NCBI GenBank assembly: GCA_035714365.1
Contig: DASTMB010000098.1
Location: forward strand, 70,005 to 134,004
DNA from: Mycobacteriales bacterium
GTDB lineage: Bacteria > Actinomycetota > Actinomycetes > BP-191
Reading direction: 5' to 3'
Length of the DNA stretch: 64,000 nt
The notes under the pieces were generated by a model. It saw nothing but the letters and a program-made list of their open reading frames with translations. It ran no database searches and was not told the DNA's origin. The translations under genes and the position numbers were made by a program. Of this stretch, positions 22,597 to 35,466 are shown one piece after another (positions within the stretch are counted from its first letter, which is position 1; the number at the start of each line of letters is the position of its first letter).

Positions 22597-23373
22597 ATGG
22601 AGCTCGTACGCCTCGAGGTCGAGGGCGGCATCGGCACGATCCGCCTCGACCGGCCCCCGATGAACGCCCTCAACGTGCAGGTGCAGGACGAGCTGCGCGC
22701 GGCCGCGGCGGAGGCGTCGGACCGCGACGACGTCCGCGCCGTCGTCCTCTACGGCGGGCCGAAGGTGTTCGCGGCCGGCGCGGACATCAAGGAGATGGCG
22801 ACCATGTCGTACGTCGACATGGTCAAGCGCGCGGGCGCGTTGCAGGACTGCTTCACGGCGGTGGCGCGGATCCCGAAGCCGGTGGTCGCGGCGGTGACCG
22901 GGTACGCGCTCGGCGGCGGCTGCGAGCTGGCGCTGACGGCGGACTTCCGGGTCTGCGGCGACAACGCGAAGCTCGGCCAGCCGGAGATCCTGCTCGGCAT
23001 CATCCCGGGCGCCGGCGGCACCCAGCGGCTGCCGCGGCTGGTCGGCCCGGCGCGCGCGAAGGACCTGGTGTTCTCCGGCCGGTTCGTGGACGCGCAGGAG
23101 GCGCTGCACATCGGCCTGGTGGACAAGGTCGTCGCGCCGGACGACGTGTACGCGGCGGCGGTCGAGCTGGTGTCCCGCTACGCCAACGGTCCCGCGTACG
23201 CGCTGCGCGCCGCGAAGGAGGCGATCGACGAGGGGCTCGACGTCGACCTCGACGGCGGGCTGCGGATCGAGCGGAAGCTGTTCGCCGGGCTGTTCGCGAC
23301 GGAGGACCGGACGATCGGGATGGAGTCGTTCGTGGCGAACGGGCCGGGCAAGGCGGAGTTCCTGGGGCGCTGA
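22597..23373 (+). CDS. echA: Enoyl-CoA hydratase/isomerase (crotonase family)
   Basis: MELVRLEVEGGIGTIRLDRPPMNALN...KVFAAGADIKEM...GYALGGGCELALTADFRV...; the crotonase oxyanion-hole motifs. Start at the first conserved Met (codon 30 of track ORF 22510..). Confidence 0.8.
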   Translation: MELVRLEVEGGIGTIRLDRPPMNALNVQVQDELRAAAAEASDRDDVRAVVLYGGPKVFAAGADIKEMATMSYVDMVKRAGALQDCFTAVARIPKPVVAAVTGYALGGGCELALTADFRVCGDNAKLGQPEILLGIIPGAGGTQRLPRLVGPARAKDLVFSGRFVDAQEALHIGLVDKVVAPDDVYAAAVELVSRYANGPAYALRAAKEAIDEGLDVDLDGGLRIERKLFAGLFATEDRTIGMESFVANGPGKAEFLGR

Positions 23374-24269
23374 TGGACGCGAAGACGGCCAACGTCGTCT
23401 ACCACGACTACGAGGCCGACCAGTACGACGAGAAGTGGTCGATCAGCTACGACGAGCGCTGCGTCGAGTACGCGCGCGACCGGTTCGTGCGGATGGCCGG
23501 CACCGACGGCTGGCCGTACCCGAAGACGCTGGAGGTCGGCTGCGGCACCGGCTTCTTCACGCTGAACCTCCTGCTCGCCGGGGTGCTCGGCGAGGCGCAC
23601 GTCACCGACATCTCCTCCGGCATGGTGCGGGTCGCCGAGCGCAACGCGCGCGAGCTCGGCCTGACCGTGCACGGCAAGGTCGCCGACGCCGAACGCCTGC
23701 CGTACGACGACGGCACGTTCGACCTCGTCGTCGGCCACGCGGTGCTGCACCACATCCCCGACGTCGAGCTGGCGCTGCGCGAGGTGCTGCGGGTGCTGAA
23801 GCCGGGCGGGCGGTTCGTGTTCGCGGGGGAGCCGACGACGTACGGCGACCTCGTCGCGCGGCGGCTGTCGCACGCGGCGTGGGTGGCGGCGACGCGGCTG
23901 TCGCACCTGCCGCTCGTCCGCGACGGCTGGAGCCGGCCGAAGGACGAGCTGAAGGCGTCGAGCGACGCGGCGGCGCTGGAGTCGCAGGTGGACCTGCACA
24001 CGTTCCACCCGGAGGACCTGGCACGGACCGCGCTGCGCGCGGGCGCGGTCGACGTGCGCGCCGACGCCGAGGAGCTGACGGCGGCGTGGGCGGGCTGGCC
24101 GATCCGCACCGTCGAGTACGCCGTCAACCCGGAGCGGCTCGGCACGCGCTGGAAGTTCTTCGCGTTCAACACGTGGCGGCGGCTGACCTGGCTGGACGAG
24201 ACGCTGCTGCGCCGCGTCGTGCCGAAGGCGTTCTTCTACAACGCGCTCGTCACCGGCACGAAGCCGTAG
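23373..24269 (+). CDS. Class I SAM-dependent methyltransferase
   Basis: MDAKTANV...LEVGCGTGFFTLNLL (motif I)...FDLVVGHAVLHHIPD...LKPGGRFVF. ATG overlaps the echA stop (TGATG). Sits inside the long artefactual track ORF 21936..24269. Confidence 0.75.
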   Translation: MDAKTANVVYHDYEADQYDEKWSISYDERCVEYARDRFVRMAGTDGWPYPKTLEVGCGTGFFTLNLLLAGVLGEAHVTDISSGMVRVAERNARELGLTVHGKVADAERLPYDDGTFDLVVGHAVLHHIPDVELALREVLRVLKPGGRFVFAGEPTTYGDLVARRLSHAAWVAATRLSHLPLVRDGWSRPKDELKASSDAAALESQVDLHTFHPEDLARTALRAGAVDVRADAEELTAAWAGWPIRTVEYAVNPERLGTRWKFFAFNTWRRLTWLDETLLRRVVPKAFFYNALVTGTKP

Positions 24270-24271
24270 CC

Positions 24272-33206: not shown

Positions 33207-34687
33207 AACGCGCGCGCGTCGAGGTGGCCGAACGGCCCGTCGACCGCGCGCAGCCGCTCGGCCACGGCCGCGCCGCGCCCGGCCTCGACCGCCTGCGCCA
33301 GCTCGTGGAACCGCGCGACGTGCGCCGCGTGCCGCCCCCGCGCGTACTCCGCCGCCGTGTCCTTCGAGACGCAGAACGCCCAGTCGCTCGACATGACGAG
33401 GAACGCCTCCCGCGCGAGCTGGTCCAGCGCCGCGTCGCGGCCGCCGCGCGGGTCGCGGCCGTCCACCGCCTTGAGCAGGCGGCGTTGCACGTCGTGCGAC
33501 TCGCCCAGCAGGTCCGGCACCTCCCAGACGTGCCAGTCCTTGCCGGACCCCCACGAGCCCGGCTGGAGGTCGACCGACCGCTCGGCGTCGGCGCGCGCCT
33601 CGCGCAGCGTCGTCAGCCGGACGCCGGCCTCCGGCAGCAGCCGCAGCACGCGTTCCAGCCAGGCCGGCCCCTCGTGCCACCAGTGGCCGAACAGCTCGGT
33701 GTCGTACGCGACGACGGTCATCCCCGGGCGCCCGCGCTCGCGCCCGATCGCGGTGAGCCGCTCGACCACCACGCGCACGAAGTCCTCGGCGTCGCGCTCG
33801 ACCGCGAGCGCCGCCCGGGCAGGGTCGTACGGCCGCTTCTCCTCCGGCGGCGTCCGCGTGCTGGTGACCCGCGCGGGCCGCAGCCCGCTGCCGTGGTCGA
33901 ACGTGTGGAAGTCGCGGTACCACCGCCCGCCCGGGTAGCCCGAGCGCGGCGACCAGACCCGGTACGTCACGTCCAGGTCGCGGCCGAACACGACGACGTC
34001 GCCGTCGCCGACCCGGCGCGGCGCGGTCGTGTCGACGCCGCTGCCGAGCAGCGTCGGGCCGTCGGCGACGAAGTGGGTGACACCCGCGGCGGCGTAGTGG
34101 CGTTCCAGGCCGGGCGCGTAGCCGCACTCCGGCGCCCAGATGCCCTCCGGCCGCGCGCCGAGGCGGATCGCGGCGTCGTCCAGGCCGGTCCGGAGCTGCG
34201 CGCGGACCAGCCGCTCGTCCGCGAGCAGCGGCTGGAACGGGTGCGTCGCCGGCCCGCCGAGCAGCTCCACGACGCCGCTGTCCCGCAACGCCCGCAGCAC
34301 CGGCGCGCCGCCGTGGCGCCAGCGGCGTTCGAACCGGTCCAGCGCGTGCGACGCGAGCCGCCACTCGTACGCCGCCGTCTCCTTGAGCGCCGCGTCCGCG
34401 CCGGGCCGCGCGGCGAGCGAGGCGGCGCGGACCTGCCAGGTGCCGAGCCAGGTGTGGTGCTGGCGCAGCAGGTACGGGTCGTCCAGCATCGCCGCGACGA
34501 CGGGCGTGACGCCGAGGGTGAGCACGTCGGTGCGGCCGTCGCCGGCGAGGCGTTCGAGCACCTCGGTCACCGGGTCGTAGGAGGTCGCCCACGCCTGGTG
34601 CAGCCACTCCTCGCCGACCGGCCAGGCGCCGGCGTGCGCGAGCCAGGGCAGGTGCGTGTGCAGGACGACGCAGCAGGTCCCGATCAT
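33203..34687 (-). CDS. GH57-family 1,4-alpha-glucan branching enzyme (Rv3031-like, DUF1957 C-terminal domain)
   Basis: MIGTCCVVLHTHLPWLAHAG... matches the GH57 N-terminal HTHLPW signature; ~494 aa. ATG overlaps the stop of the upstream methyltransferase (ATGA). Confidence 0.75.
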   Translation of the reverse strand: MIGTCCVVLHTHLPWLAHAGAWPVGEEWLHQAWATSYDPVTEVLERLAGDGRTDVLTLGVTPVVAAMLDDPYLLRQHHTWLGTWQVRAASLAARPGADAALKETAAYEWRLASHALDRFERRWRHGGAPVLRALRDSGVVELLGGPATHPFQPLLADERLVRAQLRTGLDDAAIRLGARPEGIWAPECGYAPGLERHYAAAGVTHFVADGPTLLGSGVDTTAPRRVGDGDVVVFGRDLDVTYRVWSPRSGYPGGRWYRDFHTFDHGSGLRPARVTSTRTPPEEKRPYDPARAALAVERDAEDFVRVVVERLTAIGRERGRPGMTVVAYDTELFGHWWHEGPAWLERVLRLLPEAGVRLTTLREARADAERSVDLQPGSWGSGKDWHVWEVPDLLGESHDVQRRLLKAVDGRDPRGGRDAALDQLAREAFLVMSSDWAFCVSKDTAAEYARGRHAAHVARFHELAQAVEAGRGAAVAERLRAVDGPFGHLDARAF

Positions 34688-35466
34688 CGGCGGACGGCCA
34701 CCGCGACCAGGTCGAGGCTGGTGTCGACGCCCTCGGGCGTGATCGCGAAGTCGTCCGCCGTGACCCGCCGCACCATCTCCCGCACGCCCGCCGGCCACCC
34801 CTCCGGCGACGACGCGAGCTGCGCGCCGACGAGCGGGCCGCGGCGGCGTTCCCAGCGCTCGATCCGGCGGCCGTGCCGGACGCCGAGCATCCGCGTCACC
34901 GCGAACCGCGGCGCCAGCAGCTCGTGCAGCTCGCGCGCCGACAGCTCACGGGTGTGGAACGGGTTCAACGGCGTGTCCCGGCCCGGCGAGAATGTCAGCC
35001 GGTTCGGCGTCGTGACGACGAGCGTCCCCGCCGGCCGCAGCACGCGCGCGCACTCGGCGACGAACCCCGGCTGGTCGTGCAGGTGCTCGATCGTCTGGAG
35101 GCTCACGACCACCTCGGCCGCGCCGTCGGCGACCGGGAGGCGTTGCAGGTCGCAGTGGACCGGCGTGACCCCGGGGTAGCTGTCGCGGACGTGCGCGAGC
35201 ACGTCCGGCGCGTAGTCGAGCGCGACGACCGCGCGCGCCGCCCGCCGCAGGAACGCCGCGCCGTACCCCTCGCCGCAGCCCGCGTCGACCACGAGTGCGC
35301 CCGCGCACCACGGCGCGAGCCACCGGTAGGCGACCTCGTGGCGGCGGAACCAGTAGTTCTCGTCGGCGATGCCGGGGAGCGTCCGCTCGCCCGTCAACGT
35401 CAGCCCGGTCACGCCCGCACGGTACCGGCCGGTTCGCCGGACACGCCCGCCGGGGAGGCGGTACAA
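34684..35466 (-). CDS. SAM-dependent methyltransferase (Rv3030-like)
   Basis: VVDAGCGEGYGAAFL (motif I), VVVSLQTIEHL, LRPAGTLVVTTP. The start is uncertain: ATG 35466 or GTG 35412. Confidence 0.65.
   Translation of the reverse strand: MYRLPGGRVRRTGRYRAGVTGLTLTGERTLPGIADENYWFRRHEVAYRWLAPWCAGALVVDAGCGEGYGAAFLRRAARAVVALDYAPDVLAHVRDSYPGVTPVHCDLQRLPVADGAAEVVVSLQTIEHLHDQPGFVAECARVLRPAGTLVVTTPNRLTFSPGRDTPLNPFHTRELSARELHELLAPRFAVTRMLGVRHGRRIERWERRRGPLVGAQLASSPEGWPAGVREMVRRVTADDFAITPEGVDTSLDLVAVAVRR

Follow-up and report, generated by a model that had tools for sequence, protein, structure and literature searches.

Methylglucose lipopolysaccharides (MGLP) are, to our knowledge, usually described as unique to mycobacteria. 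They are thought to modulate the type I fatty acid synthase (FAS-I), but their biosynthesis is only partly assigned and their physiological role is still debated. The pathway of the glycosyltransferase Rv3032 was reportedly described by Chandra and colleagues in 2011 as largely restricted to mycobacteria. Here, we analyzed a stretch of 64,000 nucleotides (referred to here as the window) from a metagenome-assembled genome (MAG) of an uncultured actinomycete, labeled Mycobacteriales bacterium (GenBank assembly GCA_035714365.1, contig DASTMB010000098.1, positions 70,005 to 134,004). The window carries what is probably an orthologous counterpart of the MGLP region of Mycobacterium tuberculosis.

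The literature bounds the M. tuberculosis MGLP cluster as Rv3030-Rv3037c, leaving Rv3038c outside (PMC4555173; PMC2674218); its flanks extend from Rv3028c to Rv3039c (Stadthagen 2007; Kaur 2009, PMC2674218). Rv3032 (elongation) and Rv3030 (6-O-methylation) have been implicated genetically in MGLP synthesis (PMC4555173; PMC2674218; PMC3240985), and roles for Rv3031 and Rv3034c have been proposed from gene context only (PMC4555173; PMC3240985). A second described system, the methylmannose polysaccharide (MMP) cluster of mycobacteria (manT, meT1, meT3, mmpH; PMC9883506), is also compact and combines a GT4-type α-1,4-glycosyltransferase with S-adenosylmethionine (SAM) methyltransferases. Its product, like the one proposed here, is a cytoplasmic polymethylated polysaccharide. 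However, the MMP sugar is mannose, ManT is only 28 to 33% identical to Rv3032 and Rv1212c (PMC9883506), the hydrolase MmpH takes the place of the GH57 protein, and there is no acyltransferase.

Results

Ten genes are collinear with M. tuberculosis. The window is approximately 74% G+C, which makes raw lists of open reading frames unreliable, and genes were called from third-position GC (GC3 frame plots). These calls match public ones made independently for two assemblies of this contig (ENA ERZ27253090 k141_520908, 209,949 bp; JGI 3300034009, 186,673 bp) and, together with Pfam domain labels, they agree with the genes and domains listed for the locus in an initial annotation of this DNA (Table 1). 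Scored against NCBIfam models, none of the core proteins of the locus exceeded the curated cut-off for any named equivalog. All comparisons with M. tuberculosis rest on fetched DNA of the locus with 10-kb flanks (L081), which was obtained via an NCBI M. tuberculosis protein 100% identical to the Rv3032 sequence used as bait. Gene calls and Pfam labels on the fetched DNA reproduce the order in the literature (PMC2674218): mnmA, iscS, Rv3026c, Rv3027c, fixB, fixA, and Rv3030-Rv3031-Rv3032, followed further on by Rv3034c and then by Rv3037c, Rv3038c, and echA17, with other genes between them.

Two-way BLAST of the window against this locus returned ten collinear full-length matches of 49 to 64% identity, equal in order and in relative orientation. 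Such collinearity is far beyond chance, and all core proteins of the window are full length with intact motifs. The initial annotation had proposed synteny with Rv3028c-Rv3039c, with fixA and fixB next door, in a nonmycobacterial actinobacterium; the reciprocal matches establish that the synteny is genuine, with etfB and etfA as the fixA and fixB counterparts, and the nearest genome to that of the host is a Frankiaceae MAG. The GH57 protein is identical to a protein of the NCBI MAG labeled Mycobacteriales bacterium. One pairing had to be changed. The methyltransferase in the block with echA (MT1) had been taken as the Rv3037c counterpart, but it matches Rv3038c, and no homologue of Rv3037c is present in the window. 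Also unmatched in the window are Rv3026c, Rv3027c, Rv3032A, Rv3033, Rv3035, Rv3036c, Rv3040c, and Rv3041c.

Two details of layout are common to the window and the M. tuberculosis locus: the stop-start overlap between the methyltransferase and GH57 genes and the divergence of etfB from that methyltransferase. In the window, the stop of the second methyltransferase gene (MT2), which leads the MT2-GH57 pair, overlaps the GH57 start as ATGA, which makes the suggested translational coupling plausible; Rv3030 and Rv3031 also overlap as ATGA in one M. tuberculosis gene call (L082). The start of MT2 is either a TTG at 35466 or, as in the public gene calls, position 35412. Beyond etfA follow genes for two secreted proteins and an AMP-binding-like gene. 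After these come iscS, mnmA, a Meth_synt_2-like gene, ligA, a GGDEF-EAL gene, and gatCAB; iscS, mnmA, ligA, and gatCAB had been named initially as downstream genes, along with an Rv3015c-like gene. The secreted proteins, which lie between etfA and the AMP-binding-like gene, are not kept in L001, L005, L085, or L086, whereas the AMP-binding-like gene, sited where M. tuberculosis has Rv3026c and Rv3027c, is kept in all four. Rfam and tRNA scans of the locus found no RNA element and no tRNA gene, so no riboswitch or other RNA feature appears to be involved.

TABLE 1 Features of the window, with positions counted from its first nucleotide
Feature	Coordinates	Strand	Basis or remark	M. tuberculosis orthologue (identity)
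echA, enoyl-CoA hydratase	22597-23373	+	Pfam ECH_1; stop overlaps MT1 start	EchA17/Rv3039c (50%)
MT1, SAM methyltransferase with conserved C-terminal extension	23373-24269	+	Pfam Methyltransf_11	Rv3038c (61% over 300 aa)
DUF1905 protein, variable slot between acyltransferase and MT1	24272-24559	+	Pfam DUF1905	
Left-handed β-helix (hexapeptide) acyltransferase	24570-25286	+	Pfam Hexapep	Rv3034c (60-61%)
Secreted 175-aa protein	25315-25842	-	Public gene calls, Pfam	
PAP2/VCPO-like protein	25855-27093	-	Pfam	
SCO4226-like protein	27090-27362	-	Pfam	
850-aa AAA+/TPR/LuxR regulator	27467-30019	-	Pfam	
GT4 retaining glycosyltransferase	30026-31300	-	Pfam Glyco_transf_4, Glycos_transf_1	Rv3032 (49% over 404 aa)
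Membrane GAF-HisKA-HATPase sensor histidine kinase	31446/31494-33206	+	Pfam, public gene calls	
GH57 + BE_C protein	33203-34687	-	Pfam Glyco_hydro_57, BE_C	Rv3031 (54% over 517 aa)
MT2, SAM methyltransferase	34684-35412/35466	-	Pfam Methyltransf_11	Rv3030 (51% over 246 aa)
etfB (fixA counterpart), divergent from MT2	35624-36406	+	Pfam ETF	fixA (Rv3029c) (55%)
etfA (fixB counterpart)	36421-37371	+	Pfam ETF_alpha	fixB (Rv3028c) (59%)
Two secreted proteins (521 aa; about 200-233 aa)	37457-39717; 39998-41374		No Pfam match	
iscS				Rv3025c (64%)
mnmA				Rv3024c (60%)
GH13 glgB	4596-6818	-		
Maltokinase pep2	8768-10075	-		
treS	10072-11712	-		
glgE	13895-15886	-		
glgP-like DUF3417/phosphorylase gene	15958-18447	+		
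glgX	19002-21116	-		
STAND-NTPase-like gene	2-1681	-	Runs off window start	
Two paralogous DUF2207 membrane proteins	1860-3653; 6913-8766			
Mrr-type (type IV) restriction endonuclease	3728-4591		PADLOC PDC-S02 and mREase_IV	
GGDEF-EAL protein	47109-49178		MASE9 sensor domain	
530-aa SIR2_2-domain protein	52820-54412	-	PADLOC ThsA, 89 bits	
Second GGDEF-EAL protein	61715-64000		PAS domains; runs off window end	

The glycosyltransferase is of the Rv3032 type and the GH57 protein is of the loop-less Rv3031 type. The GT4 protein scores 323 bits against Rv3032, compared to 100 bits against GlgM of Mycobacterium smegmatis (6tvp) and 120 bits against MshA, and its EX7E motif reads YEPFGMVALE. By these sequence comparisons, it resembles Rv3032 much more closely than it does GlgM, MshA, or PimA. 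It falls below the NCBIfam cut-offs both for glgA_Coryne (TIGR02149, 166.6 versus 302.4 bits) and for TIGR02095 (110 versus 328 bits). The sub-cut-off scores and the match to Rv3032 rule out a generic GlgA or GlgM, the result that the initial annotation had named in advance as fatal to its proposal.

Glu187 and Asp329 of the GH57 protein align with E183 and D354 of the Thermococcus kodakarensis enzyme (3n8t) and are invariant among 14 aligned GH57 homologues. The nucleophile Glu and the acid/base Asp are thus kept as in the characterized GH57 branching enzymes (T. kodakarensis TK1436, Thermus thermophilus TT1467, and that of Pyrococcus horikoshii), which also have the catalytic domain and BE_C in common with the window protein. 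Unlike those enzymes, the window protein has neither the flexible loop nor the β5-β6 strands. Its alignment to 3n8t and 1ufa shows approximately 30 residues fewer between conserved regions III and IV (24 residues versus 53 in T. kodakarensis; 37 versus 69 in T. thermophilus), and the missing region is the site of both elements in true branching enzymes. The short form is common to Rv3031, with which the window protein is collinear. In a survey of approximately 2,500 GH57 branching-enzyme-like sequences, those without the flexible loop and the β5-β6 strands were associated with little or no branching activity, and Rv3031, which is without both, had no detectable activity on amylose, a result given as unpublished work (PMC9291813). 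Given the missing elements and the inactivity of Rv3031, “branching enzyme” is a family label here and not a function. The family match made initially therefore holds and the function attached to it does not: judging from the alignment, glycogen branching enzyme is the wrong annotation for this protein. PDB searches with GT4, GH57, MT1, and MT2 found distant relatives only and no orthologue structures.

These properties bear on a rival explanation, namely, that GT4 and GH57 make or remodel an ordinary storage α-glucan as a glycogen synthase and a branching enzyme, while the methyltransferases act on unrelated substrates. Genes of α-glucan metabolism (glgB, pep2, treS, glgE, the glgP-like gene, and glgX) lie immediately upstream at 4596-21116, glgX is kept beside echA in many related loci, the best NCBIfam match of GT4 is glgA_Coryne, and GH57 matches branching-enzyme models. 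However, the glgA_Coryne match is well short of its cut-off and GT4 resembles Rv3032 far more than it does GlgM, Rv3032 itself adds little or nothing to glycogen in mycobacteria (PMC4981310), and the GH57 protein lacks the loop and strands that active branching enzymes have, in a window that already has a GH13 glgB. Moreover, the MT2 and GH57 genes overlap, and they are neighbors in nearly all related loci. We consider storage-glucan synthesis a very improbable role for this gene pair.

The MT2-GH57-GT4 operon is widely kept among Actinomycetes. Scanning a species-representative genome collection with the GH57 alignment, we found at least 588 stretches that encode this GH57 subtype, and we compared the best 80 of these (L001 to L080), none of which is from Mycobacterium. 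Neighbors were counted only in loci with enough flank, and MT1 and echA were counted within 10 kb. The two closest relatives of the window locus (L085 and L086), whose GH57 proteins are 80 to 81% identical to that of the window, were compared as well. None of these related loci has a characterized product.

The best 80 loci come from Frankiaceae, Geodermatophilaceae, Pseudonocardiaceae (Saccharothrix, Lentzea, Amycolatopsis, Pseudonocardia, Prauserella, Actinosynnema, and others), Jatrophihabitans, Nanopelagicales, and MAGs of Micrococcales and Jiangellales. MT2 is directly upstream of GH57 in 74 of 78 loci, GT4 is downstream of GH57 in 64 of 75, and etfB is upstream in 55 of 64. An acyltransferase gene follows the operon in 50 of 63 loci, and MT1 and echA are found in 30 and 24 of 63, respectively. 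The common order is etfA-etfB, MT2-GH57-GT4, acyltransferase-MT1-echA, and glgX, and in compact forms such as L006 all gaps are <130 nucleotides (nt). The gene-neighborhood comparison that the initial annotation had recommended thus finds the MT2-GH57-GT4 operon widely kept, and the presence of the gene block in dozens of nonmycobacterial actinomycete genera marks it as a conserved ancestral locus, not an oddity. Ten Pseudonocardiaceae loci (L011, L013, L020, L026, L033, L040, L053, L055, L057, and L066) have homologues of Rv3026c, Rv3027c, Rv3037c, and Rv3041c in an order like that of M. tuberculosis, and this fuller order marks the Rv3024c-Rv3041c segment as a whole as an ancient syntenic block. 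In the best 80 loci, an Rv3038c-type methyltransferase is present in 38 and an Rv3037c-type one in 10. Five loci (L004, L009, L041, and the Geodermatophilaceae MAG loci L050 and L079) have GH57 and acyltransferase-MT1-echA with no GT4 detectable within 10 kb, and L050 and L079 also have no MT2 detectable within that distance, which suggests that part of the operon was lost or relocated in these genomes.

The same counts raise the question of which genes belong to the pathway. It could be that MT2-GH57-GT4 is the only functional unit and that echA, MT1, the DUF1905 gene, the acyltransferase, and etfBA are bystanders held in place by slow rearrangement. The conserved order extends to the unrelated genes iscS, mnmA, ligA, and gatCAB; the slots on both sides of the acyltransferase, toward GT4 and toward MT1, take many different insertions across lineages; and MT1 and echA are near the operon in fewer than half of the loci. 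In addition, the role of Rv3034c comes from context only, and the literature cluster excludes Rv3038c (PMC4555173; PMC2674218). On the other side, the acyltransferase is convergent to the operon and directly after it, with gaps of 50 to 80 nt, in the compact loci L005, L006, and L064, and it is retained across Mycobacteriaceae, Pseudonocardiaceae, Frankiaceae, and Nanopelagicales. MGLP is also acylated and has two kinds of methyl group, so further tailoring enzymes are needed. On balance, we regard the bystander explanation as rather unlikely, though a good deal less so than storage-glucan synthesis.

A sensor kinase and a 4.7-kb block interrupt the locus. Compared with the M. tuberculosis locus, the window has extra genes: one for a sensor kinase within the operon, one for a DUF1905 protein, and a block of unrelated ones. 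The kinase gene lies between GH57 and GT4, convergent with the former and divergent from the latter. It occurs at the same position and in the same orientation in L085 (11488-13266) and L086 (11802-13583), with 75 to 76% full-length identity, and is absent from L001 to L080 and from the M. tuberculosis locus. It is therefore a clade-conserved insertion outside the ancestral gene set. No response regulator was seen in the window. The kinase was possibly recruited to regulate GT4, which is speculation on our part. A second histidine kinase is found between the acyltransferase and MT1 in L085.

Between the acyltransferase and GT4, 4.7 kb (25315-30019) are occupied by five unrelated minus-strand genes that are codirectional with GT4. 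This LuxR/SCO4226-like/PAP2/secreted-protein block has no counterpart in the 80 related loci or in L085 or L086; it is lineage specific and lies outside the glucan set. The initial annotation had described the gene set as split by approximately 5 kb of unrelated genes and by a sensor kinase. Both interruptions are present, but only the block is particular to this lineage, the kinase being conserved in its clade. An assembly artifact is ruled out as the cause of the split layout by the identical arrangement in the two independent assemblies. A repeat search for insertion footprints around the inserted genes returned only high-GC noise. The slots on either side of the acyltransferase carry cargo that differs between lineages; L085 has the second kinase there, L086 has an RHS toxin, and M. 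tuberculosis has Rv3035-Rv3037c. Among related loci, the DUF1905 gene is found only in the window and L001, and it is absent from M. tuberculosis; with one related locus having it, we rejected it as a core member, and it is probably accessory. The likely history is that the operon of this clade gained the kinase gene by insertion and then retained it, whereas the 4.7-kb block would be a recent insertion unrelated to the pathway.

Other genes surround the locus. The GlgE-pathway α-glucan gene set directly upstream is complete, and with the MGLP-type genes it makes up an α-glucan neighborhood of approximately 31 kb; in M. tuberculosis, the GlgE-pathway cluster and glgX are elsewhere in the genome. 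The two DUF2207 membrane proteins and the Mrr-type restriction endonuclease flank glgB. On the other side of the locus, one GGDEF-EAL protein lies between ligA and gatC, and a lone SIR2_2-domain protein that matches ThsA-type SIR2 defense models is encoded right after gatB. The latter gene sits in an inserted low-GC stretch (GC 0.63 versus approximately 0.74), with no partner gene identified, and looks like a horizontally acquired defense gene.

Discussion

We think it fairly likely that the window holds the orthologous counterpart of the mycobacterial MGLP region, comprising the Rv3030-Rv3031-Rv3032 operon, Rv3034c, Rv3038c, and echA17 beside fixAB. Orthology and the near-universal MT2-GH57-GT4 operon together make a methylated α-glucan oligomer the most likely product, and the tight codirectional arrangement of that operon ties methylation to the glucan enzymes. 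From the gene content, we reasonably infer that this organism makes a methylated, acylated α-glucan; the Rv3034c-type enzyme would acylate it, and the Rv3038c-type enzyme would carry out a second methylation. The etfBA genes are conserved neighbors, and any functional tie to the glucan genes would be hypothetical.

Several observations weigh against this interpretation. Published descriptions of the cluster name Rv3037c, a Thump_like-domain protein, as its second methyltransferase; a tblastn search with Rv3037c gave no match in the 64-kb window (E ≤ 1e-5), and the initiation or priming genes gpgS/Rv1208, gpgP/Rv2419c, and octT/Rv2418c are likewise not within it. Reports of MGLP are confined to Mycobacterium and a few strains of Nocardia (PMC4555173; PMC3240985), and a literature search combining MGLP with Frankia, Pseudonocardia, Amycolatopsis, Saccharothrix, and Geodermatophilus found no linking paper. 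The inactivity of Rv3031 on amylose (PMC9291813) also counts here. Finally, the conserved order spans unrelated housekeeping genes, so synteny alone is no proof that the glucan is a substrate of the echA, MT1, and acyltransferase proteins.

If the locus does specify an MGLP-type product, its synthesis might proceed as follows. The Rv3032-type GT4 would extend a short α-1,4-glucan from nucleotide-glucose, and the Rv3030-type MT2 would O-methylate its glucose units with SAM, both by analogy to the genetic evidence in mycobacteria. The loop-less GH57 protein, with its catalytic Glu and Asp, may carry out transglycosylation or trimming of the oligomer rather than glycogen branching. The hexapeptide acyltransferase would add short acyl groups, a role for which gene context is the sole basis, M. 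tuberculosis included, and more speculatively, the Rv3038c-type MT1 may introduce methyl groups of a second kind. The predicted product is a cytoplasmic methylated, acylated α-glucan oligomer.

Taken alone, the window adds one more orthologous MGLP-type locus; the interesting wider implication is that such loci are common outside mycobacteria. We tentatively suggest, as a possibility we hold at somewhat less than even, that MGLP-like polymethylated, acylated α-glucans are an ancestral trait of many Actinomycetes, with a conserved second methyltransferase of the Rv3038c and not the Rv3037c type. This would extend the trait beyond mycobacteria and Nocardia to Frankiaceae, Pseudonocardiaceae, Geodermatophilaceae, Nanopelagicales, and others, and would make Rv3038c a better-conserved candidate tailoring enzyme than Rv3037c. 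FAS-I is not known from many of these lineages; if they are indeed without it, the primary role of the polymer would be more general than FAS-I modulation. The Rv3030-Rv3031-Rv3032 operon, usually with an Rv3034c-type acyltransferase, is present in the cultivable, nonpathogenic genera Saccharothrix, Lentzea, Amycolatopsis, and Pseudonocardia, and such carriers may offer tractable systems for studying the roles of the MGLP-locus genes and the spread of methylated glucans.

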